DNA from: Eledone cirrhosa
Lineage: Eukaryota
NCBI GenBank assembly: GCA_964016885.1
Contig: OZ024743.1
Span: 49,042,001-49,106,000, forward strand
Length of the DNA stretch: 64,000 nt
Direction: 5' to 3'
In this document: piece after piece, positions 27,277 through 63,875 of the stretch
How positions within the stretch are numbered: the first letter of the stretch is position 1
Layout: every line of letters begins with the position of its first letter
Translations under genes and position numbers: made by a program
Notes under the pieces: model-generated
Told to the model about the DNA's origin: nothing
The model's database searches: none
The model's input: only the letters and a program-made list of their open reading frames with translations

Positions 27277-27574
27277 ATGAAGATTAAAAAGAAGCATGTC
27301 GATCTGTCGGCAGTCAGTCATTATCTTAGACATGGACAATATCCAGAAGGACTATCCGATTCAGACAAACGATGTGTAAGAAAAAGATCCAAGGATTTCA
27401 GATTGAAAGCTGGCGTGCTATACTTTGTACGAGATCCGAAGAATGACCCGGGCAACTCAAGCGGAGCTGAGAGCGACTCAGAACGGCCTTCCACAGAACA
27501 GGTCTGGAGAGAAGTGCTACATAAAGCTGAAGAAATTCGGAAAGCTTTTCTTGAATGCCACGTGGACAATCAAG
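27277..27574 (+). CDS. GIN1/Ginger-like integrase-derived protein, coding exon 1
   Basis: AAACATG start; MKIKKKHVDLSAVSHYLRHGQYPEGLSDSDKRCVRKRSKDFRLKAGVLYF...EEIRKAFLECHVDNQ(G), paralleling the GIN1 N-terminus; donor G|GTAAAA, phase 1. Confidence 0.8.
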
Positions 27575-28690
27575 GTAAAATTGAATTATTTTGAACTCTA
27601 TTACATACACACACCATCGATCGAAAACAACCTTTTGTTCTATTTATACTTCACCATTTTATAATTGATTCCAATGTTGTTGTTTTTTATATTTTACTTG
27701 AATTTGCCAATCAAAGTGTTTATTTGTTAAGTCAATGCCTGGTTCCAAACGATTGTTATACTTTCGTCATTGCTATCTCTGGCGGTAAAATAAACAATTA
27801 AGACACTTAACTAAACCTTATCTACTTCACTCTTCTGTCCATTTGTTCTTTGATTAACCTCTCTTATGTTCAAGATTATGATGTTTTAGTTTCATTACGA
27901 TACTAATTTAAGTGTTTAACTGGAATATAGCCTTGGATGGCCATCAATAAATTACTATTTTCTTTTCGTTTACATCAATGTTGCTATATTCTAAAACGGT
28001 GTAAACCCATATGAACCTGCACTATACTGAATCTTGACCCGCTTCATTGACCCAGTCGAACAGCAGGGTTATGTATTATACAAATATTAATTAATTGAAA
28101 AAAAAGTTAATATAATTAATCCATAAAATAGCTCACCATTTTCAAAATATATTTTCTATTATTTTCTGGAGCTTGATGTAAAACAAAATTGTGTATATAC
28201 ATACATCCAGAAGATGCTGTGATACTGGGATAATATTTGCGAAAATCCTTAACAATATATAATTCCTGTTAAGTATTTGGTACTGGAAACAAGAAACCTG
28301 CATATCATCTGACGCAAACACTGCTACGAACAAATAATATATATATATATATAAAGTAGTATCACTAACACAGTGTGATTCAGAATAAAGACGTATATGG
28401 AAATGCATGCAATGTGTTTATATATAATGAATATACTTAAATCTCGCTATGGGCATTTAAAACTGTGATCATGTCACAACTACCTCAGTAATCGTGTGAG
28501 AACGCCGAATACTAGTATTTCATGGTCTTCAATTATGTTTACTGTCTCTATACTGAGCTAGATAAGCCAATAGCTTATATTATAGATTTTCTGCAAATGA
28601 TACATTTATGGTGACGCTCATTTATATATAGTGCAGGCTTGATAGGCTGGTATGAATTAGCAATAGCACTGACATTATGTGTAATCTATG

Positions 28691-28736
28691 TATTAGCTGA
28701 AGATGGATAAAGATCCTGAAATACTAGTATCTGGTG
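28691..28736 (+). ncRNA. Minimal hammerhead-like motif (PLE type) with weak stem I
   Basis: CTGAAGA(28697)-t gga taaaga tcc t-GAAA-tactagta-TC; stem III is the perfect palindrome ATACTAGTAT; stem I pairs only via G.U. Decayed inverted relative at ~28498-28535. Confidence 0.5.
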
Positions 28737-29214
28737 TTCTCAAATGGTTACCGATTACAGCTTAAAAGACCCACTGAGACTTATGTGTTTATTTTACGAC
28801 ATAAACATATATATGCTTTCATATATGCCTATTTCTCTTTCTCTCTCTCTCTCTCTCGATATATATATGATAACTGCAATTTGCAAAGAATGTCATATCA
28901 AGCATTGCCTATGCTTTAAGCTTTTTTAAGGAAAGAAAGACTTTGCATGGGGCCAATCCCCCTTTCTGAACATTGAATACATTTGCCCCCAGAAGAACTG
29001 GGCTACATCATTGGATGCAGGTTTTATATCAGTGTGACCTTCTAGAGTGATGTCTTAATGAAGACTAGGAGTCTCTCACTCCACAAAAAAAAAACGTGGA
29101 TGGTCGTTGACTCTCCTGAGTTCCTCCGCCCTTTGACGGGTTCTGATTTTCATCCCGCAGGGTGTCCAAAATAACCCTCCTCAGCAAGCAAGCGTATATA
29201 TATACATATATATT

Positions 29215-30848
29215 TGTATTTTGGGCTCATATTGATAACTATAAGGTCAAAGGAACAATTATAGAGATGAAAAGTGGTAAGGCTGTTGGACTGTCAGTGA
29301 TAGTCGCTGAGATGTTAAAGGCTTCAGGAGAAGTAGGAACTAAACTAGTTACTCGCATAGTCAATCAAGTAATATATGGCGGAGTCATACCCAAAGAGTG
29401 GTGCATCAGTATACTTATTAACTGCTACAAAGGTAAAGGGGATGCTCTGGAGAGGAGCAATTATAAGGGCATAAAACTGATGGATCAGGTTATGAAAGTG
29501 ACAGAAAGAGTGCTGGCACAACTAATTAGAGATAGGGTCGAATTAGATGAGATGCAGTTTGGTTTTGTGTCCAGGAAAAGTACAACAGATGCCCTCTTCT
29601 TAGTAAGACAACAAGAGAGGTTCTTAGAAAAGAATAAGCCACTATATTTAGCTTATATTGACCTAGAGAAGGCCTTTGATAGAGTACCTCTATTAAGCTG
29701 TAATCGGTAACCATTTGAGAACACCAGATACTAGTATTTCAGGATCTTTATCCATCTTCAGCTAATACATAGATTACACATATTGTAAACTCGGTGGAGA
29801 GGAATGGCTTGTGAGGACAGAGGTGCTGTCAGTAAAGTGAGGGTAGGATTGGAGTTTAGTGAGGAATTCCAGATACAAGTAGGTGTTCATCAAGGTTCGG
29901 TCCTCAGCCCACTTTTGTTCATTATAGTTCTCCAAGCCATAACAGAGGAGTTTAAGACTGGCTGGTCATGGGAACTTCTCTATGCTGACGATCTGGTACT
30001 TATAGCAGAATCAGTAGAGGAGTTAGAGAATAAATTCCGGCTGTGGAAACAACAGTTAGCAAAGACTAAAGTATTCATAAGTAGGAAAGTGGACAAAACT
30101 CTGATTCCATCAGGCAAACAGCCATGCTCGATATGTAGAAAATGAGTTGGCATAAAATGTACACAATGCAAATCTTGGGTATACAAGAGGTGTAGTGAGA
30201 TAGCAGGCAAACTAACAGGAAAAGAAAATTTTGTATGTAGATGTTCAGGGAAAATTAATAGAAGTGTCAGTGATTGGCACATTTTTCAAATGCAGGTAGG
30301 ATCTATAGGGGCGGCTGATAGCTTCCGATATCTAGGTGATCAAATTAGCAAGGAAGAAGGATGCTCCGAGGCCATAGTATCTAGAATAAGGACAGGATGG
30401 AAGAAATTTAGGGAGCTGCTTCCTCTATTGACAACGAAGGGTTTCTCCCTGAATGAAAGGTTGGATGCCTGTGTGAGTTGCGCGATGCTGCATGGTAGTG
30501 AGACATGGGCAACAACTGTGGAGGATATGCGAAGTCTGGAGAGAAATGAAACCAGCATGCTCTGATCAATGTGCGTGAATGACCAAACATGAACGAGATG
30601 AGAGAGAAGCTGTGTATAAAAGGAATAAACTGTAGTATGCATGAGAGAAGACTATGTTGGTATGGCCATGTGATGCACATGGTGCCAAGTAATCCCAGTG
30701 GAAAGAAGACCACAGAAAACATGAGCGGAGGAGGTGAGAGCTGAAGCTCACAGGAGATGATGAGGGACCATGCCGAATGGAAAGATGCTGTGCTGAAGAG
30801 GACCCTCCCACCCTTGCAAGCAGGGAAAAGCGGACATAAGATGATGAT
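29215..30848 (+). mobile_element. RTE family C relic (RT to 3' end)
   Basis: NYKGIKLMDQ, DLEKAFDRVP, HQGSVLSP, YADD, FRYLGD; tail CCCTTGCAAGCAGGGAAAAGCGGAC(ATG)n. Confidence 0.9.
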
Positions 30849-31329
30849 ATATATATATATATATATATGCTCCGATAGATGTGTAATAGTAGTATATGTG
30901 AATGGCAAAGCATAAAGGAACTGAGAGAGAAACTAGCCATAAGAGGATGCAGTGTCAGGCAAGGAGATTGTGTTGGTATAGACATGTGATGTGTATGAAA
31001 GACAACAGTTGTATAAAAAGGTGCAGAACACTCAAAGTTGATGGAAGCTATGCAGTAGGAAGACCCAGAAAGATTTGGGATAAACTGATAAACACTACCC
31101 TTTTTGGGAGGTGTTTTTGATGCCCACAGAGTAGGATTGGTCGAGTGCAAGGCCTTTCCCACTTAAAAAACCTTCAAATCACAGGCATTGTTTCTTCAGA
31201 ATATGTTACAGGTTCGTGTGGCTGGCCGTAGCCTAAAAGTGCACCAGTTTCTGTAATCTGACAAGCGATTGCAATACTCTTAGCAGAGTTTGCAGCCATC
31301 ATGTATGTGGATATATATATACATATATA

Positions 31330-34300
31330 TCATCATCACCATTTTACGTCCATTTTTCCACGCTGGCATGGGTTAGACAGATTGTCCTGTTGTGGGTAAT
31401 GTTAAGTCAGTTGACCATGTCTTGCTCATACAGGAACTGATTTTGGCTTGATTTCTACAGCTGGATGCCTTTCTTAACACCAACCTCATTTACAGTGAGT
31501 GCTGGATGTTTTTTTCCGTGGCGCCTATACATCCACTTTACAGTGTGGTCTGGGGGCTTTTTTGTGGTGACACCTCCACGACCACTTTGCAGTGGGAGGG
31601 GAGAGGAGGAATATTGTCTATATGCTTCGGCTTCAGCTTGTTCCCGTGGTTTTCTGTATTATTGCGTGACACCAGAGGTCACGGTCCTTGTCGTCGCCGT
31701 TAAGAGGTGCAATTGCGCAAGGTCCGCTTTTATCACCTTGTCCCAGGTCTTCTTGGGTCTCCCCACTCCATGCTTCCATCAACCTTTAGTGCTCTGCACC
31801 TTTTTATGCAGCTGTCATCCTTCATACGCATCACATGTCCATACCAACGCATCCTCTTTTCCTGCACACAGCATTTGATTCCTCTTATGCTCAGTCTCTT
31901 TCTCAGTTCGTTTATGCTTTGCTGTTCGGGTATATTACTATTACACATCCATTGGAACATGCAAGCTTCTTTTCTTTCTAATCTACGCAAGTCTTCTACA
32001 CACAGCACCCAGGTCTCACTACCATGTAACATTGCTGTTCGTGTACACACATCATACAGTCTGCCTTTCATTTGGAGGGAAAAGCCTTTTGCAGCTAGCA
32101 GTGGTAGTGGCTCCCTGAACTTCTTCCATCCCATTCTTACCCTGGTTACTGTACTTTCAGAACACCCACCTCCGCTGCTAATTTGGTCACTTAGGTAGCA
32201 GAAGCTATCTACTGTTTCTACAGAGCCCTCCCAGATTTTGGTAGTGCTTGTTTCCTGTGGCTGTTTGCTGCTGCTACATGTAAAGGCTACATTCCTAACT
32301 AAGCTTCCTGAGATCCCACTACATCTCTTGTGTACCCATAGTTTGCATTTGGGGCAGAGGATAGAATTCCTACATACTGAGCAAGAATATTTCTCTGAGG
32401 GGATCTGGGTTGTTTTCTCGTCTACTTATGAGGACCTTAGTCTTTGTCAGGTTGACTTTGAGACCTTTTCTTTCTAGTCCTTGCTTTTATGTTTGGAATT
32501 TCTTCTTTAGTTCCTCCATAGATTCAGCTATAAGTGTAAGATCATCTGCATACAGAAGTTCCCATGGGCATCTGGTCTTAAACTCTGTTATAGCCTGCAC
32601 TACGATAATAAACAAGAGAGGGCTAAGAACAGAGCCCTGGTGGACATCGACCTGCATGCTAAATTCCTCGCTATTGTCATTGTTAACCCTAACTTTGCTG
32701 ACTGCTCCCCTATACATGGCTTGCACAGCTTTCACGAGCCATTCATCTACTCCTAGTTTTCTAAGAACCCACCAGATTATAGCACGGGGCACTCTGTCGA
32801 AGGCTTTTTCCAGATCGACAAATGCCAGGTGGAGCGGTTTACTTTTAGCTCGGTTCTTTTCCTGTAACTGCCTCACAAGGAAGAGAGCATCAGTGGTGCT
32901 TTTTCCTGGCACAAACCCAAACTGCATCTCATCTAGTTTTACCCGGTCCCTAATCAACTGTGCTATAACTCTTTCCATTACTTTCATGACCTGGTCCATC
33001 AGCTTTATACTTCTATAGTTTCCTCTATCTAGTGCATCTCCTGACAATGATGCTACTGCACCAATCGTTTGGTATGACACCCTCTTGTATTACCTGGTTA
33101 ACAATACGTGTGGTTACGGTGTGACCTACCGACCCAGATGCCTTCAGCATCTCGGCAGCTATACCCGATGGACCGGTTGCCTTCCCCGTCTTCATATCTT
33201 TAATTGCTTTACTTACTACGCTACTGCTGACTTGTACTGTTGGCCCCACTATAGGGTATACTTGGGGTAGGGTCTCTTTCTCCCATGCATTCTCTTATTT
33301 AGTAATCTTTCATAATGGTTCTTCCATGCTTCCATGCTTTCTTCTCGGCACTTGTGAGGGCAAGCTCACCTTTATCATTCTGGACACACTTCTCTCCAAT
33401 GACATCACAATTTTCTCTAACACACTGCCTCGCAATCCTGAACACCTCCTGTTTCTGGTCCTCACGTTGCAAAACATGCTTGAATTTTCTATCCTCCGCT
33501 TCCCTCCTGGTCTCTATGTAATGTACCCTGCTTCCTCCATTCTTCCATTCTTTCCATACCTGTCTCTTGGCTTTAACTGCTTCATCTACCTTATTGTTCC
33601 ACCACCAAGTCACTCTCCTCCTCCCTGTGGTCTTGCTCAAACCACAAATCTCGTCTGTCGCCTTTAGTAAGTTATTTTTTAGGAACTCCCAGTGCTCTTC
33701 TACATTGAATGTCTCTAACTGTTCTTCTTTACTGTCATAGGCGTTGAGTAAGATACCCTTAAATCTGTTACTGACTGAGGGGTCTTTCAGCTTCCAGATC
33801 TTTCTTCTCCAAGTTGCCTTTTGTTTCCAAGTAACTCTAGTTCTGACAATGAGGTCGCTGACAACTAAGTTGTGTTGGGAGGTACATTCCTCACCAGGGA
33901 AGGCTTTTGTGTTTTCAACCATCGATCTATCTCGTCCTTTGATAAGGATAAAATCTATCTGACTAGAATGCTTCCCTGATCTATAGGTGATCAGAGGGTT
34001 GTCGGGTTTTTTTAAGTTTGTGTTACATATTGACATGTCATTGGCGTTGCAGAATTCTAGGGGTCTGAAGCCTTCTTCATTTCTTGCGCCAAACCCATAG
34101 CCTCCATGGACACTATAGAAGCTGTCACAGTGTTTAGCAACGTGTCCGTTAAAGTCTCCTGCAATGATTAGGTAGTCATTGTCGTTTGTTAGGGCAGTAG
34201 TGTGCATTAGGGACTCGTAAAACCTATGCTGAGGTTCGTCTGACAACCCCAATTGGGATGCATAAGCTGATATGATTGTAGCAATTGTTTTATTCAGGAC

Positions 34301-34590
34301 TAGTCTGAGTTTAATGATTCTTGCGTTCACCCTGCTCACTGAGATTACCTTATCTACACATTTGTCAGCTAATAGTATACCCACACCACCCGGAAACATT
34401 TATAGCACTCATTTTCGCCTACAAACACTCTAGCAGACCTTCCTCTCCGTCTAGTCTCTTGCACACAGCATGCGTCAATTCCCTTTCGCTCTCGCATCTC
34501 TACAATTTCTCCTCTTCCTTTCATCGTGCATACATTCATGGTGCGAACCTGGAGTTTTGGGCATTCGCCATTACTTGTGGGAATGGGTGG
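31330..34590 (-). mobile_element. RTE family B, near-full-length decayed copy (APE-RT-3'UTR)
   Basis: ORFs 33299-34399 (APE: GDFNGHV, QIDFIL), 32487-33080 (RT: YADD) and 31733-32134; frameshifted. Confidence 0.92.
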
Positions 34591-34645
34591 ATATATATAT
34601 GTATACATATATATATGTGTATATATATGTATATCTATATATATA

Positions 34646-35925
34646 CAGGGTGCGGATGATATTTGTTTGCAAGATTACTGTCGAGGAAAAAATAACACAG
34701 TAGTTTTATTTTTTTTAAATATATTTATCAAACTTGGGTCAGTTTGTCTTCATGATTTGTTCTTTCGATCTCATTCGATAAACCCGCCATTGGCTTTGAT
34801 GATGGCCTCGGAACCGGCTAGAGGCCTTCGTCACTGTCCCCCGACTTAGGCCCCTAAAGGCACTTGTGATCCTGGCCTTCAGATCGTCTTTTGTATTGCA
34901 GCTAGATCTGTTGGTGTCTTGTTCCACTGCGCCCCACACAAAGAAGTCGAGGGGGTTGCAGTCAGGCGAGCTGGGAGACCAGATGTCAGGTGAAGTGTGG
35001 TCGACGATGTTCTCTGACATCCAGGCTTGGGTCTTTCGGCTGGTATGGCAGGGCGGTGAATCTTGCTGCCACACGTACGGCCTAGCTGCAGCTATCTGGT
35101 CGATCCAGGGCTTTACTACCTCGCTCAGAACGTGGATGTAGCCATCGGTGTTCAGCTTGAGGCCCTCAGGGAAGAAGTGAGGTGGCATGACGACACCTAA
35201 GACCAATGTTGTCGCTGGAAACTTTGTTTGCATGACTCTGGGCACGTCTTTGGATGAGACAGCGAGCCACCTGTTGTTCTGGGAGTTGATCTTCTGGTCT
35301 TGGCAGAAGGTTTTCTCATCGGAGAAAAACCACAGCATGTCTGGCTCCAGTGGGTGTTTCAACTTGTTGATCAGCTTCTTTGCATGCTTCAGTCACTTTT
35401 CTTGCATTGCCTTTGACAGAAATTGTCCTTTCCTCATCTTGTATGAAACATAGCGAATGTCTTCATGTACCACCAGCCTAATGAGGTTTTCATCCACGCC
35501 TTTCTCCCTTGCAATGGCATGCATCGACTTGCTGGGTTCATTGTTGATGATATCCTGAACTTTAGCGACAAACTCGGGCGTTCTGAAGGCGTCAGATCGT
35601 CGATCATGTGTTTTCCTCTCAGATGTTGCTTCGTAGTCGAATCCTGAATCTTCCAATTCCTTTCTGACCTTTTCCACCATTCTCCAGCTCATGCTGAGAA
35701 AGTCTGACATTTCCTTATTTGTCCTCCCGGTGCGGATTCCAAGAAGAACTCTGTGTCTCTTCCACAAATTTGGAGGTTGAAAATTATTCATAATCATTTA
35801 TTCTGAAAATAAATAATGGAAATATAGTCACTGTTTTTATGAAGACCAGAGTGACAACAGAAGTAAAAAAAAAATTGCATAAAATTAACAGTTGAAAATT
35901 GCAAACAAATATTGTCCACACCCTG
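34646..35925 (-). mobile_element. Tc1/mariner DD37D (maT-type) DNA transposon, defective
   Basis: 27-bp TIRs CAGGGTG(C/T)GGA..ATATTTGTTTGCAA (24/27 match), TA on both sides; transposase 35797-34739 with one in-frame TGA; FSDEK...QQD-x37-D (SPDCNPLD). Confidence 0.92.
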
Positions 35926-35939
35926 TATATATATATATA

Positions 35940-37670
35940 TAACTGTTACAAGGGTAAAGGAGATGCCCTAGATAGGTGTAACTATAGAGGCATTAAATTA
36001 ATCGACCAGGTCATGAAGGTTACGGAAAAAGTAATAGCGCAACTAATCAGAGAAAGAATTGATCTAGATGAAATGCAGTTCGGGTTTGTGTCAGGCAAAA
36101 GTACCACAGGCGCTCTTTTCATTGTACGACAACTACAGGAGAAGTACCTAGCTAAAAGTAAACCCCTATACTTAGCTTTTGTTGACTTGGAGAAAGCCTT
36201 CGACAGAGTACTCCGTTCCATTATCTGGTGGGCTCTTAGAAAACTAGGTGTTGACGAATGGCTTGTGAGAGCTATACAAGCCATGTATAAAGAAACAGTC
36301 AGCAAGGTTAGAATTAACAACGAATATAGTGAAGAGTTTAGCGTAAAAGTTGGTGTCCATCAGGGCTCTGTTCTTAGCCCCCTACTATTTATTATTGCCC
36401 TTCAGGCTATAACAGAGGAGTTCAAGACCGGCTGCCCATGGGAACTCCTATACGCAGATGATCTAACGCTCATAGCTGAATCAATGACCGAGCTAGAGAA
36501 GAAATTCCAAACATGGAAGCACGGCCTAGAATCAAAAGGCCTTAAAATTAACCTGGCTAAGACTAAAGTTCTAGTTTGTAGGAAAGAAAATAAGGCAAAG
36601 TATGGGTGCATAAAAGATGTAGTGGGATCACAGGTAAGCTAACTAAGAACATAGATTTTACATGTGGCCGGTGCTCTGGTGCAATAAGTAGCAACAAGTG
36701 CCCACAAAATACTAGCTCTTTCAATTGCGCAGAGGGTTCTATAGAAATAGTGGACAGCTTCCGTTACCTGGGTGACAAAATCAGCAGTGGGGGGGGGGGT
36801 GCTCTGAAAGTACAGTAGCTAGAGTCAGAAATGAATGGAAAAAGTTCACAGAGCTTATACCACTATTAGCCGCTAAAGGGTTCTCCCTAAAAATGAAAGG
36901 CAGGTTATATGATGCTTGCATACGAACAGCAATGCTGCATGGCAGTGAGACCTGGGCATTGTGTGCAGAGGATATACGCAGACTAGAGAGGAACGAAGCT
37001 TGCATGCTCCGCTGGATGTGTAATAGTAATATACGTGAACGGCTAAGCATAAACGAACTAAGGAAAAAATTAGAAATAAGAGGGATCAGATGTTGGTATG
37101 GTCACGTGATGCGCATGAAAGACGACAGCTGTATAACAAAGTGCAGGGCAATAAAGATAGACGGTAGCCACGGAGTAGGCAGACCCAGAAAAACCTGGGA
37201 TGACATGATAAATTCCGACCTCACACGCTTACAGCTCTCCAAGACAATGTCACTGGACCGAGACCTTTGGCGGTACTCAGTAATAGAGAAGACCCGGCTT
37301 AGCTAAATACATAGTAAAACCTACTATAGTCAGTAGGCATCTCTAACCCCCCCCCCCCATCCACACCGCCCCTTTCAATGTAAAGTTATGTTGGTGCCGC
37401 GCCATCCAGGCCGAAACAAATGAGATCGTGTAGGTGTCACGACAAAAAAACACACAGTCCACGCTGTAATGTGGCCGTGTAGGCAACACGGTAAAAACCT
37501 CCCAGACCCACACTGTAAATGTGGTTGGTGTTAGGAAGGGCATCCAACTGTAGAAAACCTGCCAGACAGTCCTATGCGAGTAAGACAATCACTCTTGCCT
37601 CAAGTGGGACTACCCCCGTCCAAACCCATGCAAGCGTGGAACACGGACGTTAAACGTTGATGATGATGAT
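35940..37670 (+). mobile_element. RTE family A, 5'-truncated with internal deletions
   Basis: RT ORF 35899-36642 (YADD), C-terminal ...IEKTRLS*, full 3'UTR and (ATG)n tail. Confidence 0.93.
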
Positions 37671-37727
37671 ACATATATATATACACATATATATATATAT
37701 ATATACACACATATATATATATATATA

Positions 37728-38568
37728 CAGCTGTGCTGAGACAGCAAGCAGCAAACAGCCAGAGGAAACAAGTACCACCAATCTCTGGGAGGGCCCTGTA
37801 GAAACAGTAGGCAGCTTCTGCTACCTAGGTGACCGAATTAGCAGCGGAGGTGGGTGTTCAGAAAGTACAATAACTAGGGTAAGAACGGGATGGAAGAAGT
37901 TTAGGGAACTACTACCACTGCTAGCTGCAAAAGGCTTCTCCCTCAGAATGAAAGGCAGACTGTAAGATGCGTGTATCCGAACAGCGATGTTGCATGGTAG
38001 TGAGACCTGGGCGCTGAAGGTGGAAGACTTACGTAGATTAGAGAGAAACGAAGCCTGCATGCTCCGATGGATGTGTAACAGTAATATACGTGAACGACAA
38101 AGCATAAATGAATTGAGAGAGAGACTGACCATAAGAGTAATCAAATGCTGTGTGCAGGAGAGGCGGTTGCGCTGGTATGGACATGTGATGCGTATGAAGG
38201 ATGACAGCTGCATAAAAAGGTGCAGAGCACTAGAAGTTGATGGAAACCGCGGAGTGGGGAGACCCAAGATGACCTGGGATGAGGTGATAAAAGCCGACCT
38301 TACCCAATTACACCTCTCAAAGACAATGACACACGACCGTGACTTCTGGCGTCACGCAGTAATACAGAGTACCTGACCTCCCATGGGTACAAGCTGAAGC
38401 ATATAAACAATATGCCCCCACACCCCCCACCGCTGTAGAAATCAAGCCAGATCAGTTCCTGTATGAGCAAGGCATGGTCAGCCGACCAGACACTGCCCAC
38501 AACAGGACAACCCGTCTAACCCATGCTAGCGTGGAAGAACGGACGTAAAACGATGATGATGATGATGA
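37728..38568 (+). mobile_element. RTE family B 3' fragment
   Basis: [19 protein letters not shown], ...RHAVIQST; tail GGACGTAAAAC(GAT)n. Confidence 0.9.
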
Positions 38569-38663
38569 TATATCCAGAGGGTGTAACTAGGAGTTACTGC
38601 AAGTTCACCCGGGAGAGCACTCAATGTTTAGGTTCACTTCTGTGATGAGGTGTAGAGCTATAC

Positions 38664-38710
<47 letters not shown>

Positions 38711-38817
38711 CATACATACATATATATATACATATATATATATACATATATATATACATATATATATGTATACAGATATATATGTATATATATATATATA
38801 TGTGTGTGTATATATAT

Positions 38818-39070: not shown

Positions 39071-39109
39071 ATAGATAGATATGTATATATATGTGTATAT
39101 ATATATGTA

Positions 39110-39443: not shown

Positions 39444-39472
39444 ATATGTGTGTGTGTATATATATATATATA

Positions 39473-46598: not shown

Positions 46599-46599
46599 G

Positions 46600-52064: not shown

Positions 52065-52229
52065 GATGAATATAAGTTAATAGAGTGCTCAACCGAGGGA
52101 GCCAAATTATTATTATTATTATCATCATTTTACGTCCGCTTTTCCCTGCTTGCAAGGGTGGGACGGAAACTGATTCTGGCTTGATTTCTACAGCTGGATG
52201 CCCTTCCTAACACCAACCTCATTTACAGT

Positions 52230-53017: not shown

Positions 53018-53365
53018 GGAGGCACATGGCTCAGTGGTTAGAGCATTGGCCTTGCAATCGAAAGGTTGTGAGTTCAATTCTCAGACTGGGTGATGTGTTG
53101 TTTCCTTGAGCAAGACACTTTATTTCACATTGCTCCAGTTTACTCAGCTGTAGAAATGAGATGATAGGGACTGGGGTCCATATCATTCCACTGCAAAGTG
53201 GTCATGGAGGTGCCACGGCAAAAAAGCACCCAGCACTCACTGTAAATGGGGTTGGTGTTAGGAAGGGCATCCAGCTGTAGAAATCAAGCCAGAATCAGTT
53301 CCCGTCCCACCCTTGCAAGCAGGGAAAAGTGGACGTAAAATGAAATGAAAATGAAAATGATGATA
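53018..53365 (+). mobile_element. CORE-type SINE A
   Basis: Full copy directly after the PLE inverted repeat. Confidence 0.9.
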
Positions 53366-53369
53366 TATA

Positions 53370-55092
53370 TATCATCATCAGGTTTAGCGTCCGTGTTCCA
53401 CGCTTGCATGGGTTTGGACGGGGGTTTTCCCACTTGAGGCAAGAGTGGTTGTCTTGCTCGCATAGGACTGTCTGGCGGGTTTTCTACAGTTGGATGCCCT
53501 TCCTAACACCAACCACATTTACAGTGTGGGGCTGGGAGGTTTTTACCGTGTTGCCTACACGGCCACATTACAGCGTGGACTGTCTGGCGGGTTTTCTACA
53601 GCTGGATGCCCTTCCTAACACCAACCACATTTACAGTGTGGGGCTGGGAGGTTTTTACCGTGTTGCCTACACGGCCACATTTACAGCGTGGACTGTGTGT
53701 TTTTTGTCGTGACACCTACACGATCTCATTTGTTTCGGCCTGGATGTTGTGGGACCAACATAACTTTACATTGAAAGGGGCGGTGTGGGTGGGGTGGAGG
53801 GTGGTGGGACGGGGGTGTGTTTTGATAGAGATGCCTACTGACTGTAGTAGGTTTTTACTTTGTATTTAGGTAAGGCGGGTCTTCTCTATTACTGAGTACC
53901 GCCAAAGGTCTCGGTCCAGTGACATTGTCTTGGAGAGGTGTAAGCGTGTGAGGTCGGAATTTATCAGCTCGTCCCATGTTTTTCTGGGTCTGCCTACTCC
54001 GTGGCTACCGTCTATCTTTATTGCCCTGCACTTTGTTATACAGCTGTCGTCTTTCATGCGCATCACGTGACCGTACCAACGTAGCCTTCTCTCGAGTAAA
54101 CAACATCTGATCCCTCTTATTTCTAATTTTTTTCTTAGTTCGTTTATGCTTTGCCGTTCACGTATATTACTATTGCACATCCAGCGGAGCATGCAAGCTT
54201 CGTTCCTCTCTAGTCTGCGTATATCCTCTGCACACAATGCCCAGGTCTCACTGCCATGCAGCATTGCTGTTCGTATGCAGGCATCGTATAACCTGCCTTT
54301 CATTTTTAGGGAGAACCCTCTAGCGGCTAATAGTGGTATAAGCTCTCTGAACTTTTTCCATCCAGTTCTGACTCTAGCTACTGTACTTTCAGAGCACCCT
54401 CCCCCACTGCTGATTTTGTCACCCAGATAACGGAAGCTGTCCACTATTTCTATAGAACCCTCTGCGCAGTTGAAGGAGCTAGTATTTTGTGGGCACTTGC
54501 TGCTACTTATTGCACCAGAGCACCGGCCACATGTAAAATCTATGTTCTTAGTTAGCTTACCTGTGATCCCACTACATCTTTTATGCACCCATACTTTGCA
54601 TTTGGGACATAAAATGGAGTTTCTACCTACGCCTTTCCTACACACTGAGCATGGCCATTTCCCCGATGGGACCGCCGCCTTATTTTCTTTCCTACAAACT
54701 AGAACTTTAGTCTTAGCCAGGTTAATTTTAAGGCCTTTTGATTCTAGGCCGTGCTTCCACGTTTGGAATTTCTTCTCTAGTTCGGTCATTGATTCAGCTA
54801 TGAGCGTTAGATCATCTGCGTATAGGAGTTCCCATGGGCAGCCGGTCTTGAACTCCTCTGTTATAGCCTGAAGGGCAATAATAAATAGTAGGGGGCTAAG
54901 AACAGAGCCCTGATGGACACCAACTTTTACGCTAAACTCTTCACTATATTCGTTGTCAATTCTAACCTTACTGACTGTTTCTTTATACATGGCTTGTATA
55001 GCTCTCACAAGCCATTCGTCAACACCTAGTTTTCTAAGAGACCACCAGATAATGGAACGGGGGACTCTGTCGAAGGCTTTCTCCAAGTCGAC
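53370..55092 (-). mobile_element. Young RTE family A, 5'-truncated; ~110-bp tandem duplication in the 3'UTR
   Basis: 406-aa ORF 53866-55086 almost identical to 47006-48715; 53466-53576 repeated at 53577-53690. Confidence 0.95.
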
Positions 55093-55109
55093 GATATATA
55101 TATACGTAT

Positions 55110-58100
55110 GTGTGCTACATGCATGAGATGGAGAGGTGCCTCTGCAAGACTAATCGCAGGCAAACATCTTGGTTATAAGCTTTTCTGGGTAGGTAAGGAT
55201 GATGGGTTAGGTGGAGTAGGCATTTTACTGGCTGAGAGATGGATCGATAAGACAATGGAGGTAGTTAGAGTTAGTAATAGAATAATTAAGCTTAGATTAG
55301 TTGTAGGGAGGAGACTGCTGACAATCATCTCTGCCTATGCTCCCCAGGCAGGCCTAGGTAAAGAAGTGAAAGACTGCTTTTAGAAGCAACTTTTAGAAAC
55401 AGCCACAATGACAGAGGACGGAGACATCGTTATGCTAGCAGCGGACTTCAATGGTTATGTTGGGCAGCTCCAGGATGGATACACTGGGGTACACGGAGAA
55501 GGAGTGAGGCTTCTTGAATTTTGTGATGCAAGTGCACTAACCATTTGCAACACTAACTTCAAGAAACCTACCAACCACCTAATAACCTACAAATCTGGCG
55601 AGCACATAAATCAAATTGACTTCTTGCTATTTAGGCATCGAGACAAACAGATGGTGGCAAATACTAAGACATACCCCAAGGAAGAATGTACCCCACAGCA
55701 TAAATTAGTCGTTAGTGACATTTCAGTAAGCAAGAGACAAAATGAGACATACAGGAAGTTGTGGAAAAGAAAGGTTTGGAAGCTAAAAGACCTTTCACTA
55801 AAATATAAATTTAGGAAAGCCCTTCAAGATGTGTATGATGAAAAAGAAGACGATTTAGAGTTGTATGACATAGATGATAACTGGAATTTCTTACGTGACA
55901 ACTTACTGTAGGCTACTGATGAAACTTGTGGCTGGAGCAGAGCTCCAACCAGACAGGGATTGACCTGGTGGTGGAACAGCACGGTAGATACGGCTATTAG
56001 AGACAAAAGACTAGCTTGGAAGGCTTGGGAAAATGGTGGGAGTAGAGATGGATATACAGCCGCTAGACTTCAGATGTACTTAGCACGCAGGGAGGCTGAG
56101 AGTAAGAGATTTGCTAATGTTCTGCGACTGGAAGATCAGATATGTGCGGTGTTCCGCATTGCAGGCGGTGTATCAGTGTAAATTAGGATGTTGTTGGAGA
56201 TAAATGTGTCCGGAATGATGCTGGTGTACTTAGTGTCACCAATGATCAGAAAAAGGAGGCCTGGAAATGTCATTATGAGAGACTGATGAATGTGGGGAAC
56301 GAATGGGAGAGAAAGAGAATTTACCTCCAGTAGACCCGAGAGAGGGACCAGCTATTCAGATTGACAAATATAGGGTCCAAGAGGCAATTAAAAAGATGAC
56401 AAATGGTAAGGCCACTGGACCGTCAGGGATAGTTGCTGAGATGCTGAAGGCATCAGGGGATGTAGGCACTAAACTGGTTGCACGCATCATCAATCAAGCT
56501 ATATATGGCAGTGTCATACCCAAAGACTGGTCCAGCACTATTCTCATAAATATCTACAAAAGTAAAGGTGATGCTCTGGAGAGGAGCAATTATAGGGGCA
56601 TAAAGCTGATGGATCAGGTTATGAAAGTGGCAGAGAGAATATTAGCGCAACTCAGACCAGGTGATGTGTTGTTTCCTTGAGCAAGACACTTTATTTCACA
56701 TTGCTCCAGTTTACTCAGCTGTAGAAATGAGATGATAGGGACTGGGGTCCATATCACTCCACTGCAAAGTGGACATGGAGGTGCCACGGCAAAAAAGCAC
56801 CCAGCACTCACTCTAAATGAGGTTGGTGTTAGGAAGGGCATCCAGCTGTAGAAATCAAGCCAGAATCAGTCCCGTCCCACCCTTGCAAGCAGGGAAAAGC
56901 GGACGTAAAATGACGATGATGATGATGAATTAGAGAAAGGGTAAAATTAGATGAGATGCAGTTTGGTTTTGTGCCTAGGAAAAGTACAACAGATGCCCTC
57001 TTCTTAGTGAGACAACTACAAGAGAGGTTCTTAGAGAAGAATAAGCCACTATACTTAGCTTTTGTTGACCTAGAGAAGGCCTTTGATAGAGTACCTCGAT
57101 CTGTCATCTTGTGGTCCCTAAGGAAACTAGATGTAGAGGAATGGCTTGTGAGGACAGTGCAAGCTATGTACAGGGTTCGGTCCTCAGCCTGCTCTTGTTC
57201 ATTATAGTCCTCCAAGCCATAACAGAGGAGTTTAAGACTGGCTGTCCATGGGAACTTCTCTATGCTGACGATCTGGTTCTTATAGCAGAATCAGTAGAGG
57301 AGCTAGAGAAGAAATTCTGGCTATGGAAACAGCAGTTGGCATCAAGAGGACTGAGAGTGAACATAGCTAAGACATAACTCTTGATAAGTAGTAAAGAGTA
57401 CAAAACTCTGACACCATCAGGGAAATGGCCATGTTCGATGTGTAGACTGGCATAAATTCTATAAAATGTTCACAATGCAGATCTTGGGTGCAGAAGGGAT
57501 GTAGTGGGATAGCAGGCAAACTAACATGTAGGGAAATTTGACAGTAGTAATCGCATTGATAGACACATTTTTCAAATGCAGGTGGGTTCTATAGAAGTGG
57601 TTGATAGCTTCCGGCACCTAGGTGATCAGATTAACATGGCGCGGGGGGGCTTCCTAGGCCATAGTATCTAGAATAAGGACGGGTTAGAAGAAGTTTAGGG
57701 AGCTGCTTCTTCTGTTGACAAAGAAGGATTTCTCCCTGTGTACAAAAGGCCAGTTATATGATGCCTGTGTGAGATGCGCGATGCTGCATGGTAGTGAGAC
57801 TTGGGCAATAATTACAAAGGATATACAACGACTGGAGAGAAATGAAGCAAGCTTGCTCCGTTGGATGTGCAATGTCAATGCGTGTGAACGACCAAGTATA
57901 GATGAGTTGAGAGAGAAACTGTGTATAAGAGGGATGAGTTGTGGTGTACGGCAGAGAAGACTGAAATGGTATGAACATGTGATACGCATGGAGGATGACC
58001 GTTGGGTAAAGAAGTGCCAAGAAATCCCAGTAGAAGGAAGATGCAGTAGAAGAAGACCACGCAAAACATGGGCGGAGGTGGTGAGAGCAGACCTCAGATC

Positions 58101-58212
58101 GCTAAGCTCACGAAGGAAATGGCGAAGGACTGTGACAAGTGAAGAGATTCTGTGCTGAATAGGACCCGTCCAACCCTTGCAAGCAGAGAAAAGCGGACGT
58201 AAAATGATGATG
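55110..58212 (+). mobile_element. RTE family C near-full-length relic interrupted by a SINE A (56652-56927)
   Basis: APE (YAPQ, ADFNG, QIDF), RT split at ...LAQL|IRERV, YADD, family-C tail. Confidence 0.9.
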
Positions 58213-58228
58213 ATTATATATATGTATA

Positions 58229-58290
<62 letters not shown>

Positions 58291-58293
<3 letters not shown>

Positions 58294-59968
58294 AGACCTG
58301 CCAACCGCTTTCTCCACACTTATGATCTTCTCTATCAGTGCCTCCTCTCTGGCCTCAGTGTAAGCGGTACAGAGTTCTTCCTTCATCACCTCCACATTCT
58401 CTTTCCTCTCCTTCGTAGGATCAGCATAGAATTGGTCCTTGGCAGCTTTCAGGTGTTCTCTGGCTGCACACACTTTTGGGTCTGCAGAGCTGACGTACTT
58501 CCTTTTGTTCTTTCTCCTCGGCACCAGGGTCTCACTTGCTTCCGCCACTGCATTCGTGAAGTACCCGTATCTCCTCGTCACACTCTCCTTAATCCCTTGA
58601 CACAGAGCACTGAACCTGTTCCTCACTTTTACTGTGAACCTCTCCTGTAGCTGATCACCTTCTTGAAAGCTCCCCAGTCATAGATTCCTCTCCTGGGCTG
58701 AGCCGTGCCTTTTCTCAAGCTCACCCGGACCTCACTCATAACAAGCCGGTGGTCACTGCTCAGTGTACTATTCCGCCACTTTTCCTCACCAGAATGAAAT
58801 CAATCTGGGACTTAGACAGGTGCATATCTGAGATGTAGGTCCACATCTTCCCCTGATTCTTCCTATATCTTAGGTTGGTTACTATCAAGTTCGGTTCCAG
58901 CAGGATCTCTCTCGGTAGTCTTCCATTTCGGTTGGTGTTGTTATGGAAGTACCAGCATCCTTACTCAGATGTGCATTGAAGTCCCCCAGAACAAGCAGGA
59001 TGTTGTGAGCTTGTGTGGTGTTGACAGCTCTACACACCTCCTCATGGAACTCTTCCGCACTCACATCACTGTCTCCCTCGGTTGGACTATAGGCTGAGAT
59101 GACTGTCAGTCTTGGGGTTTCCATTGAAGGTCACCCTCACACTCACGGAGAGACAGGCATTATTTCCTTCACCAATAGACTGGTTTTTGCGCTGAAAACA
59201 AAACCCACTCCTTCTACTGCAGCATTGGTCATGTTCTTCACTGCAGATGTGGTGATGAGCTGGATCCTGTGTTGTTGGAGCGCAAGTATCTGTATACCAC
59301 TCTCCTCAAACAGACGACCCAACTCCTCCCTCTTAACCAGCGTCCGAACAGCCCTCACATTCAAAGTGCCCATTTTGATGACTCTTCTGCAGGACAAAAC
59401 TGTATTCTTTATATTTGTCTCAGAGACAACTGATCCATCATCCACTGGCCCTCCCTGTGGCACTAAGCTAGCAGAGTCATAATAACCAGACTGCTCCTAG
59501 ACAGTGTAATTAGGGACTCTAACCCTAGTGCACTCGAATTAGGTAATTATTTAACCCATAAATGGGGCCCTAACAGGTACTACTACTCCGGGCCAGAGCA
59601 GACCTGGGAGGTATGACAACTAAGGGGTAACTCCACATTCCCCACAGCTCTTGAACTCAAAAACTGGAGCCTTGCCACTGGATATAGTTTAATGTCATAC
59701 CCACGAGCCTCCCAAAAGCCAGCTCAAAAGTGACACAGAGGAGACTGAGATTAGCTGGACATCCAGAGTTGACACTGCACTCAGTGCTCCTGTGGGAGCC
59801 CCTGCATGCATAGACACACTGGAAGAGGAAGACCGAGGTTCACATATGTTGATGCCTTAAGGACAGACACCGGTCTCTTGAAGATGCAGGACATGGCAGC
59901 GATAATGAGGGACAGAGACCGTTGGAGAGAACTTGTCCATGGATCTCGGGAATTTTACCCGCCCTAGA
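58291..59968. mobile_element. RTE-like family D: inverted 5' part (58291-59710 -) joined to 3' end (59715-59968 +)
   Basis: Minus: GTLNVR, ILALQQHR, GVGF, ISAYSPT, LGDFNAHL; plus: RRLRLAG...GRGRP; (TA)n on both sides. Confidence 0.7.
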
Positions 59969-60007
59969 TATATGTATATATATATGTATATGTATATATA
60001 TGTATAT

Positions 60008-61038
60008 ATCATCATCATCACCGTTTTACGTCCGTTCTTCCATGCTAGCATGGGTTAGACGGGCTGTCCTGTTGTGGGCAGTGTCTGGTCGGCTGACCAT
60101 GCCTTGCTCATACAGGAACTGATTTTGGCTTAATTTCTACAGCTGGATGCCCTTCCTAACACCAACCTCATTTACAGTGAGTGCTGGGTGCTTTTTCCGT
60201 GGCCCCTACATGTCCACTTTACAGTGTGGGCTGGGTGCTTTTTTGCCGTGGCACCTCCACGACCACCTTGCAGTGGGAGGGTGTGGGGGCATATTGTCTA
60301 TATGCTTCAGCTTGTACCCATGGGAGGTCGGGTACTCTGTATTACTGCGTGACGCCAGAGGTCACGGTCGTGTGTCATCGCCTTTGAGAGGTGTAATTGG
60401 GTAAGGTCGGCTTTTATCACCTCATCCCAGGTTATCTTGGGTCTCCCCACTCCGCGGTTTCCATTGACTTCTAGTGCTCTGCACCTTTTTATCCAGCTGT
60501 CATCCTTCATACGCATCACATGTCCATACCAACGCAACCGCCTCTCCTGCACACAGCATTTGATTCCTCTTATGCTCAGTCTCTCTCTCAATTCATTTAT
60601 GCTTTGTCGTTCGCGTATATTACTATTACACATCCATCGGAGCATGCAGGCTTCGTTTCTTTCTAATCTACCATGTAACATTGCTGTTCGGATACACGCA
60701 TCATACAGTCTGCCTTTCATTTTGAGGGAGATACACACACATATATATATATGTGTGTGTGTATCATCATACGTCCGCTTTTCCCTGCTTGCAAGGCTTG
60801 ATTTCTACAGCTGGAAGCCCTTCCTAACACCAACCTACAGTGAGTGCTGGGTGCTTTTTTGCCGTGGCACCTCCACGACCACTTTGCAGTGGGGTCCCTA
60901 TCATCTCATTTCTACAGCTGAAGCAATGTGAAATAAAGTGTCTTGCTCAAGGAAACAACACATCACCTGGTCTGAGAATTGAACTCACAACCTTTCGATT
61001 GCAAGGCCAATGCTCTAACCACTAAGCCATGTGTCTCC

Positions 61039-61039
<1 letters not shown>
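60008..61039 (-). mobile_element. RTE family B 3' end (60008-60730) and internally deleted SINE A (60763-61039)
   Basis: ORF 60307-60738 ...QSTRPPMGTS*; SINE A head and core on minus. Confidence 0.88.
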
Positions 61040-61086
<47 letters not shown>

Positions 61087-61090
<4 letters not shown>

Positions 61091-62533
61091 CCTTCGACAG
61101 AGTCCCCCGTGCTGTAATCTGGTGGGCTCTTAGAAAATTAGGAGTAGATAAATGACTTGTGAAAGCAGTACAAACCATGTATAGGGGAGCAGTCAATAAA
61201 GTTAGAGTTAGCAATGACTATAGCGAGGAATTTAGCATACAGGTCGGTGTCTACCAGGGCTCTGTTCTTAGCCCGCTCCTGTTCATTATAGTTTTGCAGG
61301 CAATAACGGAGGAGTTTAAGACCAGATACCCATGGGAACTCCTATATGCAGATGATCTTGCACTTATAGCTGAATCCATGGTGGAACTCGAGAAGAAATT
61401 CCAAACATGGAAGCAGGGACTAGAAAGAAAGGGTCTCAAAGTCAACCTGACAAAGACTAAGGTTCTTGTAAGTAGACGAGAAAACAGAACCCAGATCCCC
61501 TCAGGGAAATGACCTTGCTCAGTAGGTAGGAACTCCATCCTCTGCCCCAAATGCAACAATGGGTACACAAGGGATGTAGTGGGATCTCAGGAAGCTTAAC
61601 TAAGAATGTAGGTTTCACATGTAGCAGCTGTGCTGGGAGGGCTCTGTAGAAACAGTAGACAGCTTCTGCTACCTAGGTGACCGAATTAGCAGCAGAGGTG
61701 GGTGTTCAGAAAGTACAATAACTAGGGTAAGAATGAGATGGAAGAAGTTCAGGGAGCTACTACCACTGCTAGCTGCAAAAGGCTTTTCCCTCAAAATGAA
61801 AGGCAGACTGTATGATGCGTGTATACGAACAGCAATGTTACATGGTAGTGAAACCTGGGCGCTGTCTGTAGAAGACTTGCGTAGATTAGGAAGAAACAAA
61901 GCTTGCATGCTCTGATGGATGTGTAATAATAATATACGCGAACGGCAAAGTATAGACGAATTGAGAGAGAGACTGTGCATAAGAGGAATCAAATGCTGTG
62001 TGCAGGAGAGGAGGTTACGTTGGTATGGACATGTGATGCATATGAAGGATGACAGCTGCATAAAAAGGTGCAGAGCACTAGAAGTCGATGGAAGCCGCGG
62101 AGTGGGAAGACCTGGGATGAGGTGATAAAGGCTGACTTTACCCAATTGCACCTCAAGAGCAATGACACACGACCGTGACCTCTGGCGTCACGCAGTAATA
62201 CAGAAGACCCCCACCCCCACACACCCACCCCCCACAGGAACAAGCCGAAGCTGAAGCATATAGACAATAAGGTCGTGGAGGTGCCACGGCAAAAAAGCAC
62301 CCAGCACTCACTGTAAAAGTGGACGTGTAGGCGCCACGGAAAAAAAGCACCCAGCACTCACTGTAAATGAGGTTGGTTTTAGGAAGGGCATCCAGCTGTA
62401 GAAATCAAACCAGAATCAGTTCCCGTATGAGCAAGACAAGGTCAGCCGACCGGACACTGCCCACAACAGGACAACCCGTCTAACTCATGCTAGCGTGGAA
62501 GAACGGACGTAAAACGGTGATGGTGACGATGAT
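61087..62533 (+). mobile_element. RTE family B, 5'-truncated
   Basis: [29 protein letters not shown]-type 3'UTR and tail. Confidence 0.9.
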
Positions 62534-63029
62534 GTATTTAATATTCTCTCATGTTGTTGGCAAGAAGAGGATGGATTTGGTGGCTGCTTTGTTTGTTTTA
62601 TTTATATGGTACCAGGTGTTTGGTATAGGGTTGGCATAATTGTGCAACTGTCTAAGGAACAGTTGGGTGAGTGGGATGTAATCTGCATATGAAACTGGGT
62701 TTATATTTTGAAGGGGGCTTGTAGGAGCAAAAAGGAATGGGTAGAAAAATGAATCATTTTTTAATTCATTTGAGAAATTATAAGTTGTGTTGCTATTGTG
62801 CATTACATTAGGTTGGAGATTTAAAAGATAGTTTGGTGTCCACTTTTCAAAGTTCTTATTTAAAGTTGCTGTCCTAGGCAGGTAGGAAAACCATGCTTTT
62901 CCCATGTGATCCATTTTTTGCATGGTACCTTTGGCTGGATGCCCCTCCTTACACCCAACCACCTTATAACAGTTTTGTTTCCTGGTTTTCTTCCAATATC
63001 TCCATCATGACAGAATGATTATCATTAAT

Positions 63030-63218
63030 TAGTGGATTGGCAGTATAGGTAGAAGGTCGGACGCCATGCTTTGCACAAAGAGTTACGGCCCTTTATGGTC
63101 TGAGTTCAAATCCCGCCGAGGTTAACTTCACCTTTCATTCTTACGGGATTGATAAAATAAAGTACCAGCAATACACTGGGATAATTGCTGGCCTTGTGCC
63201 AAAAGTAGAAACAATTAA
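63030..63218 (+). mobile_element. Meta-type SINE B
   Basis: Same head, core and tail as 45837-46028. Confidence 0.88.
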
Positions 63219-63624
63219 TTAGTAGAGATAGCTTGAAAGTCATAAGCCTTCGCAATCTCAAAACAGTGACTATCACTGCCTGCCTTACCTTGGTAGGCAG
63301 TCTGAATGTTTTTGTTTGTTTGTTTTTTAAGGCTTAGTCATGGAGTGAAAGGCAGAGCCCATGGCCCTTTTTTTGTTTGTTTTTTTCTGGGTCTCTAAGG
63401 CTGGTGGGAGGATATTATTCCCAAACTTGATGCCTGGCCTGAATGCTTATAACAGAGTGAACTTTGCTAAAGGCATCCAAGGACCAGGTGGTGGTGTTAA
63501 ACTGGGCCACAGATTAAATCTACCACACAATGTATTCGCATTTGTCTTTTATTGTTTTCATCTTCATTATCCAAATTTTTGCACTAATTGATTATTAATG
63601 AAATACTTGTATTTTCTCTGACAG

Positions 63625-63875
63625 GAAGCCACCGAACATATGACAAAACATTGAAGGAATTCAGTGACCGTTACTATTTGGCTAAAACAATTGAAACTGT
63701 TCGCAATTACATAAAAGAATGCCCAGTTTGCCAAGCTTACCGCAGTGGCTACTCAGCCACTTCCACACCTGCTGGCAAGACTCCATTAGAAAGAGAAGAA
63801 CATGTTGCCGAACTTATGGCAGCCTTACCATTTCCAGAGACCTTGGGTGAAGTAATCAATCACTTTTGGCAAAAG
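63625..63875 (+). CDS. GIN1/Ginger-like integrase-derived protein, coding exon 2 (completes the HHCC zinc finger)
   Basis: Branch-like CTAAT (63584), TTTTCTCTGACAG| acceptor, phase-1 G+GA=Gly; GSHRTYDKTLKEFSDRYYLAKTIETVRNYIKECPVCQ...NHFWQK; donor |GTATT. Confidence 0.8.

Follow-up and report, generated by a model that had tools for sequence, protein, structure and literature searches.

An octopus gene joining a dead integrase core to repeated HHCC modules and C2H2 fingers, with relatives across molluscs and in a brachiopod: a candidate DNA-binding regulator

We analyzed a 64,000-nt stretch of the octopus Eledone cirrhosa (positions 49,042,001 to 49,106,000 of contig OZ024743.1; hereafter the window) and identified the start of what is almost certainly a host gene, encoding a protein in which an integrase core without its catalytic residues is combined with 3 copies of an integrase-type zinc-binding module and 6 C2H2 fingers. 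The full gene model has 14 coding exons and 13 GT-AG introns, forms one open frame of 1462 amino acids over 54 kb, and ends 17 kb past the window. The original prediction had placed a Ginger/GIN-type integrase gene here, with its HHCC (His-His-Cys-Cys) finger split by a 36-kb intron; the exons it described are real, but they are merely 2 of the 14 coding exons (the first 183 codons). With a probability of roughly 0.6, we read the protein as a dimeric, sequence-specific nuclear transcription regulator, analogous to vertebrate ZBTB11, the dimer being a model prediction.

Coding exon 1 (27277..27574, on the plus strand as is the whole gene; 298 nt, codons 1-99) begins with the ATG at 27277, carries the YPYY motif, a Ser/acidic loop insert, and the first His of HHCC module 1, and ends in phase 1 within Gly100, with the donor GTAAAA directly after 27574. 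Across intron 1 (27575..63624; 36,050 nt, GT-AG), coding exon 2 (63625..63875; 251 nt, codons 100-183) follows a pyrimidine-rich acceptor ending in AG, contributes the second His and the CxxC of module 1 and then a linker toward the core, and ends in phase 0 before the donor GTATTT. Exon 1 was compared with contigs from 4 of the 24 public runs listed, covering four organisms and four studies, and in 4/4 runs a single contig tracked exon 1 to 27575 and continued with the letters of exon 2; one run was 100% identical to the window. The RNA status of these runs is presumed, although splicing is taken as real because the contigs lack the intron. The predicted in-phase join, with canonical splice sites and no stops in either exon, is thereby borne out, and so is the completed finger: exon 2 alone matches Pfam Integrase_H2C2 (PF17921) at E 3e-8, above the cut-off. 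The window contains 38 H-x(22-40)-C-x2-C patterns across its six frames, and only the one at 63630 has, judged by eye, an integrase context.

A protein search with exon 1 led to LOC106874323 of Octopus bimaculoides (1424 amino acids, annotated as "uncharacterized"), which was used to map the downstream exons on 200 kb of downstream genome. The 12 further exons, whose existence had been anticipated, were found within 17 kb, with the frame open to the stop (numbers beyond 64000 continue the window numbering; contig position = number + 49042000). Intron 2 (804 nt) begins at 63876 and fills the window to 64000. Exons 3-5 (64680-64849, 65278-65408, 66151-66304) encode the integrase core, with the second Asp and the Glu lost, and exon 6 (66427-67243) encodes the core end, a Thr/Ser spacer, and basic clusters. 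Module 2 lies on exons 7-8 (68859-69084, 69779-69960), with a phase-1 intron in Gly683, and module 3, with H-H-CC, on exons 9-10 (70894-71158, 72151-72350), with a phase-1 intron in Gly832. Exons 11-14 (73752-74610, 76640-76760, 79359-79573, 80609-81108) encode an acidic linker, the 6 C2H2 fingers, a conserved tail, and the stop, and are followed by AATAAA at 81247. The predicted protein is 91% identical to the O. bimaculoides protein and 69% to a cuttlefish protein.

In the contigs, the 1401-nt intron between exons 10 and 11 is skipped exactly in runs X1 and X22 and with a slightly shifted exon start in X5 and X11, and the 2029-nt intron between exons 11 and 12 is skipped in 3 of the 4 runs. 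In X1 (4858 nt) and X5 (4560 nt), exon 1 and exons 10-12 were found on a contig of equal length, equal depth, and the same strand, so the integrase part appears to share one transcript contig with the first fingers. For the joints of exons 2-10 and 12-14, the support is the open frame together with identity to annotated and contig-derived proteins. Its Thr-rich tract makes exon 6 about 43 codons longer than in O. bimaculoides, and this tract is absent from two contig-derived relatives.

The domain order is a YPYY+HHCC module (residues 1-135), the integrase core (180-345), two more YPYY+HHCC modules, 6 C2H2 fingers, and a tail of the form YEVEC...ADLxAIxxLAQA; a helix, the Thr/Ser spacer, and basic clusters follow the core, and the acidic linker precedes the fingers. 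PF17921 was found in 3 stretches of the protein (E 1e-29), which aligns from its N-terminus with Ginger1-type transposases and GIN1 and carries YPYY in three copies. Identity between its N-part and element integrases is only about 20%. Both inserts that had been proposed relative to GIN1 are present, with 43 versus 24 residues before the first His and a CxxC-to-core linker of 48 residues, compared with 24-26 in three Ginger1-type transposases and one GIN-like protein of a fish.

A profile of residues 1-380, run against 1.84 billion protein representatives, gave 1265 matches at E<=0.001, with 11 at E<=1e-30 and then a gap to 8e-18. The ten named top matches come from Haliotis, Patella, Lymnaea, Bulinus, Babylonia, Batillaria, Nucella, Pecten, Sinanodonta, and the brachiopod Lingula, and the eleventh is an octopus-like fragment. 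Databases label these family proteins "uncharacterized". Three modules, the core, 5-7 fingers, and the tail were present in 11/11 full-length family proteins compared, and a tail profile matched family proteins only among the proteins compared, including a Bulinus protein outside its building set. Two trees were built from the HHCC finger plus the core, the first with 79 of the 111 usable rows and the second with 50; in them the family forms one clade (100/100 in the second tree), with Lingula outside the molluscs, the cephalopods as one group, and gastropod and bivalve branching only partly resolved. These sequence comparisons fit vertical descent from before the mollusc-brachiopod split, which we take to be Cambrian or earlier, and the origin would thus probably lie more than 500 million years back. 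With orthologues in cephalopods, gastropods, bivalves, and Lingula, the lineage-specific domestication once suggested does not hold. A cephalopod-only gene, as word-indexed protein searches had implied (three clusters, two of them cephalopod-named), was likewise overturned by the profile search. No annelid, nemertean, or arthropod protein is among the ten named top matches, a weak absence since full-length cephalopod proteins are missing from the same list. Two Bulinus truncatus entries (P0019 and P0167; 789 and 1353 amino acids), whose contigs are equal in length, are a local or assembly duplicate.

Catalysis has been lost across this family. The full Asp-Asp-Glu (DDE) triad, whose possible retention the original prediction had raised, is present in 0/13 family rows versus 54/61 element rows; the first Asp is kept in 4/13 (cephalopods and Lingula), the second in 0/13, and the family rows align poorly at the Glu column. 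The GPY/F pattern is absent in 9/9 family proteins and present in GIN1 and in 3/4 elements. Pfam scans of family proteins found no OTU or Ulp1 domain, and those of 7 family proteins found no BTB domain. In the zinc-binding modules, H-H-CxxC is retained in modules 1 and 2 of 11/11 family proteins, whereas module 3 is H-H-CC in 9/10 molluscs, degenerate in Pecten, and complete in Lingula. The Ginger/GIN-type layout proposed earlier therefore stands for the YPYY+HHCC start but not for a stand-alone integrase, given the three modules, the 6 C2H2 fingers, and the missing DDE triad and GPY/F. Two finger linkers, HSGQKPF and HTGEKPY, are canonical, and the protein has basic clusters; 9/10 molluscs retain the residues with which the last two fingers contact bases (xRSR, REY), and those of finger 2 are identical between Lingula and cephalopods.

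Exons 1, 2, 3, and 7 have one match each in the 3.0 Gb genome, such counts being lower bounds. In three comparisons, the 99 codons of exon 1 showed 9, 19, and 18 synonymous versus 2, 5, and 3 non-synonymous changes, giving ratios of non-synonymous to synonymous rates (dN/dS) of 0.056, 0.058, and 0.037 for this exon and pointing to purifying selection; all amino-acid changes fall within the loop insert (residues 56-73). No terminal inverted repeat (TIR) pair was found (0 arm pairs between 3 kb upstream and 5 kb downstream of the gene), a flank-to-flank blastn gave dispersed-repeat pieces only, and neither reverse transcriptase nor RNase H was found in the Pfam scan of the protein, whose frame begins at YPYY. 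Splicing, copy number, dN/dS, and the missing transposon parts thus all came out as the original prediction of a host gene had expected.

The phase-1 intron lies in a glycine five residues past the first His in all three modules (Gly100, Gly683, and Gly832), and modules 2 and 3 each form a cassette of two exons whose outer ends are in phase 0. Since each of these modules spans more than 400 nt, two exact matches of intron position by chance are very unlikely. The shared site therefore suggests, on sequence grounds, that the modules likely go back to an intron-bearing cassette that was duplicated within the gene, and that the 36-kb intron 1 would be an ancestral intron later swollen by repeats. 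The other 12 introns measure 122-2598 nt, so that intron 1 exceeds the next longest 14-fold. Repeats elsewhere match 64% of it (208 kb of flanks compared), and its length reflects ordinary filling by repeats at an old intron position. A tree of 61 single modules has too few columns to order the duplications or to link other multi-HHCC proteins.

These results bear on 2 further explanations of the locus, both of which we consider extremely improbable. The disproportionate intron 1 could be taken as a sign that two unrelated element remnants were joined by chance or assembly error; this is excluded by the junction in contigs of four organisms, which recurs in the annotated O. bimaculoides protein, and the intron shares its codon and phase with modules 2 and 3. 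A Ginger element that still moves, or a host recombinase with activity, might be considered because Ginger1 transposase genes may carry 1-4 introns and occur in Aplysia (PMC2836005; here and below, statements on cited papers refer to those parts of their text that were available), and because the first Asp is kept in cephalopods and Lingula. Against mobility or recombinase activity stand the single copy, the lack of a TIR pair, the 13 introns over 54 kb, the second Asp absent in 13/13 rows, the missing GPY/F, and a tree that broadly tracks the hosts.

For the donor, the best named match outside the family is tenrec GIN1 (E 6e-17). A clade with GIN1, whose layout the original prediction had likened to that of this gene along with Ginger transposases, was rejected by the approximately unbiased test (p 0.014, with tenrec as the one GIN1 row), and grouping with 15 Gypsy-type integrases (14 with reverse transcriptase or RNase H) was not rejected (p 0.125); the free trees place the family outside the main Gypsy-pol group, with no supported sister. 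The start codon directly precedes YPYY in the octopus gene, as in Ginger1 transposases; Ginger2 lacks YPYY, and some Gypsy integrases carry it (PMC2836005). In Gypsy long terminal repeat (LTR) retrotransposons, the integrase lies behind reverse transcriptase and RNase H, whereas the octopus frame starts at YPYY without either. By these comparisons, the donor was probably a Ginger1-type transposase, and a YPYY-type Gypsy integrase is the less likely source. Such a transposase gene would have been fixed before the mollusc-brachiopod split, would have lost catalysis and its GPY/F end, had its intron-bearing YPYY+HHCC cassette copied twice downstream, and been joined to a C2H2 array, with intron 1 later swelling with retroelements. 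A strict genome search with a Ginger1-type transposase returned integrase frames of about 33% identity, none matching its Ulp1 part. GIN1 and GIN2 are described as having three introns in common with Ginger1-5_HM; at a boundary after VRQW, hinted at by tenrec GIN1 isoforms only, the octopus gene has no intron. The triad of tenrec GIN1 (P0028) reads D, D, S in the alignment, so the catalytic Glu is seemingly missing there too. Elsewhere in the genome, G000:C3:346968776-347038011 holds 14 Integrase_H2C2 matches on one strand at about 5.31-kb spacing, 11 of them in 1061-amino-acid open frames; these are likely copies of a Gypsy-like element arranged head to tail.

We modeled the N-part of the O. 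bimaculoides protein from a 60-row alignment, obtaining a mean predicted local distance difference test (pLDDT) score of 86.6. The best fold match is the foamy-virus integrase core (Z 16.1, root-mean-square deviation 4.2, 172 aligned), and Foldseek matched the PFV intasome (E 2e-9). Two copies of the core, run with no alignment, were predicted to form a homodimer with a score of 0.68 versus 0.00 for the best of three controls, with contact agreement of at least 89% and pLDDT of at least 83; in calibration, the same mark was reached by 21/30 solved pairs (7/16 animal pairs) and 0/23 single chains. The predicted interface comprises residues 232-244 and 307-317, which we take to correspond to the helices that pair integrase cores. 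Across 10 family rows, conservation is higher at the interface than elsewhere in the core (0.62 vs 0.49, p 0.005; 0.49 in elements), and the catalytic loop has a conservation of 0.37 in the family versus 0.66 in elements. The dead core is thus predicted to keep the integrase dimer. An Atlas lookup matched the N-part to integrase clusters and the middle part of the Lingula protein to generic C2H2 clusters, and gave nothing on function.

A dead integrase fused to extra zinc-binding modules and 6 fingers is likely a gene regulator, and the predicted dimer, its conserved interface, and the conserved finger contacts together suggest a dimeric DNA-binding one. In such a protein, the C2H2 array would pick the DNA site, the dead core would pair two chains through the integrase helices, taking over the job that BTB does in ZBTB proteins, and the HHCC modules and the conserved tail may bind cofactors or add DNA contacts. 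For the HHCC finger of ZBTB11, rescue is lost when any of its ligands is mutated, and TP53 repression requires Cys116 (PMC5384227). Several points weigh against reading the octopus protein as a dimeric transcription regulator. ZBTB11 rescue survives deletion of the whole N-terminus or of the fingers (PMC5384227), so the HHCC model is not simple, and Imagin, which is the nearest analogue with a dead core, resides mainly in the cytosol of oocytes (PMC12863088). The Lingula fingers 3-7 differ from the molluscan ones, which implies that targets are not fully common to the family. C2H2 arrays can also bind RNA or protein. The dN/dS values cover exon 1 only and come from differences in single contigs. 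In the structural work, 46 of the 60 alignment rows are element or GIN sequences; 3 family rows alone gave a pLDDT of 47 and integrase matches at Z 5.2-5.4, with core strands and helices in the same order as in the better model, and their profile found no solved relative by sequence. The dimer score may reflect likeness to solved integrase dimers, and buried residues among the interface positions inflate the conservation measured there.

Other functions were weighed against a transcription regulator. The protein could be a retroelement-control factor, whose fingers or HHCC modules would recognize LTR or transposon ends or whose dead core would poison active Gypsy integrase multimers. The genome holds many Gypsy-type integrase frames (150/150 scored candidates above the Pfam cut-off), the core keeps its fold and predicted dimer face, and recognition of viral DNA by a cellular HHCC finger has been raised as a possibility (PMC5384227). 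We regard such control as unlikely, as the single copy, strong purifying selection, and conserved fingers better fit a fixed host target than an arms race, and the N-part has the low identity with element integrases given above. Slightly less likely still is a chromatin-architecture or insulator-type protein, in which the dimerizing N-terminus would bridge distant finger-bound sites with no direct activation or repression. The predicted dimer domain, long low-complexity spacers, and C2H2 array would suit it, Drosophila ZAD- and BTB-finger architectural proteins share this dimer-spacer-C2H2 layout, and an ETS-type site and CpG patch upstream (see below) may suggest broad expression. The acidic linker and conserved tail motif, however, seem closer to the cofactor-binding parts of a transcription factor, and in everything testable here an architectural role overlaps with the regulator that we favor. 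Least probable of these is a non-nuclear scaffold binding RNA or protein, as suggested for Imagin, which keeps YPYY, H2C2, and a DDE-less core and lies in the oocyte cytosol (PMC12863088); C2H2 fingers are not mentioned in the available text of that paper, whereas the octopus protein has 6 in tandem, with two canonical linkers and several basic clusters.

Among known systems, Imagin of malacostracan crustaceans is described as a Ginger1-derived, DDE-less gene and resembles the octopus gene in being single-copy and multi-exon, with YPYY, H2C2, and a DDE-less core under purifying selection, as an old invertebrate domestication; it differs in its length of about 585 amino acids, its one module, no described C2H2 array, its place in an MMUT intron, and its cytosolic location, and the available text names neither molluscs nor Lingula (PMC12863088). 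The octopus gene has three modules, 6 fingers, and a mollusc-brachiopod range, and our trees contain no identified Imagin row. ZBTB11 of vertebrates shares an N-terminal integrase-type HHCC finger, a middle interaction domain (predicted here as a dimer), and a C-terminal C2H2 array, but has BTB, one HHCC, 12 fingers, and no integrase core, making the likeness an analogy (PMC5384227, PMC12062965). Vertebrate GIN1 and GIN2 run YPYY-HHCC-core from the start codon and have introns (PMC2836005, PMC3424704); they retain HHCC and GPY/F (PMC3424704), and the two GIN proteins examined lack a C2H2 array and repeated modules. Ginger1 DNA transposons likewise have the start codon directly before YPYY, H2C2, an integrase core, and introns (PMC2836005), whereas the octopus gene lacks TIRs (in Ginger1 40-270 bp, starting TGTNR, with a 4-bp target-site duplication), multiple copies, DDE, GPY/F, and OTU or Ulp1. 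Finally, mammalian SCAND3 and KRBA2 are chimeric host genes in which a Ginger-family integrase domain is joined to domains of zinc-finger genes, but they derive from Ginger2, which is without YPYY (PMC3575427).

Ginger, H2C2, and GIN1 do not appear in the available text of a survey that covers transposon-derived factors across animals (PMC10027918). A screen for transposon-host domain fusions yielded 12,803 proteins, the ZBTB11 type being the largest set (PMC12062965), and may already list this fusion. No description of the family was found in the literature searched, including by locus name, in a search that mostly did not cover subscription papers. The layout is thus absent from the papers found, but its kind is already known from GIN1, Imagin, and ZBTB11. 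Few old transposon domestications have been described outside vertebrates, the simpler crustacean Imagin having been published in 2026, and the one in the octopus family appears older and spans at least 2 phyla. Its steps are visible: catalysis disappeared, the fold and the predicted dimer face persisted, a cassette was copied twice together with its intron, and fingers were added. The family offers an independent invertebrate test of the role of the integrase HHCC finger in a host regulator, hitherto probed in ZBTB11, a test case for a dead integrase core replacing BTB, and a testable identity for "uncharacterized" proteins of model molluscs.

Repeated YPYY+HHCC modules without a core also occur in other proteins (P0045, P0135, P0150, P0032, and P0048): Dreissena has 3 modules plus C2H2, Lytechinus has 4 modules plus a C2H2 array, Engraulis has 3 modules plus THAP, and Cherax has 2 modules plus ALS2CR8. 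The family tail was not found in these multi-module proteins. A broader and tentative reading, which we hold to be doubtful at present, is that the two-exon, phase-symmetric YPYY+HHCC cassette could be an effector module that animal transcription factors gained from a transposon, on a par with KRAB or SCAN, and that it underwent repeated duplication and fusion to DNA-binding domains (C2H2 in the present family, Dreissena, and sea urchins; THAP in a fish; ALS2CR8 in a crayfish; BTB-C2H2 in ZBTB11). The mollusc-brachiopod gene would then be a more than 500-million-year-old case that keeps the dead core as its dimerization domain instead of BTB, and an effector module of this kind would be one so far unrecognized.

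Upstream of exon 1, contig 5' ends at 27113-27185 and a motif and CpG scan delimit a transcribed leader and promoter patch (27113..27276, plus strand). The CpG/ETS/YY1 promoter previously proposed is upheld in two of its three parts: the CpG observed/expected ratio is 1.45-1.51 at 27000-27299, and an ETS-type site, CCGGAAGT, lies at 27140-27147 on the minus strand as its sole occurrence in 64 kb, but the motif scan of the patch found no full YY1 site (GCCATnTT), only GCCAT cores. The leader carries upstream ATGs at 27116, 27209, and 27235 (plus strand; region 27116-27273), whose frames all close before the main ATG; frames of 40 and 9 codons share the stop at 27238, and a 12-codon frame in the phase of the gene stops just before the ATG. 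No differences are listed at 27188-27265 in the four runs.

An RNA recognition motif gene, presumably RBM22, has its last exons at 3780-4030, about 8000-8150, and 8970-9117 (plus strand), encodes a proline-rich tail with YPSQDP, and ends 18 kb upstream of the integrase-derived gene on the same strand. Tandem arrays occupy 6120-7441 (61-bp unit, 21.7 copies, 95% matches) and 20246-22918 (a 50/60-bp unit family over 2.7 kb). Intron 1 contains reverse-transcriptase fragments of long interspersed nuclear elements (LINEs) on both strands, outside the spliced exons, along with other repeats and (TA)n runs. Broken frames at 34739-35797 and 50362-52076 (both minus strand) had no Pfam match at 1e-4; from their motifs, we take the former to resemble a mariner-type transposase and the latter a Penelope-type retroelement. 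Two close LINE copies lie in opposite orientation at 47006-48715 (plus strand) and 53866-55149 (minus strand), each with reverse transcriptase followed by a PHD-like Cys/His domain.

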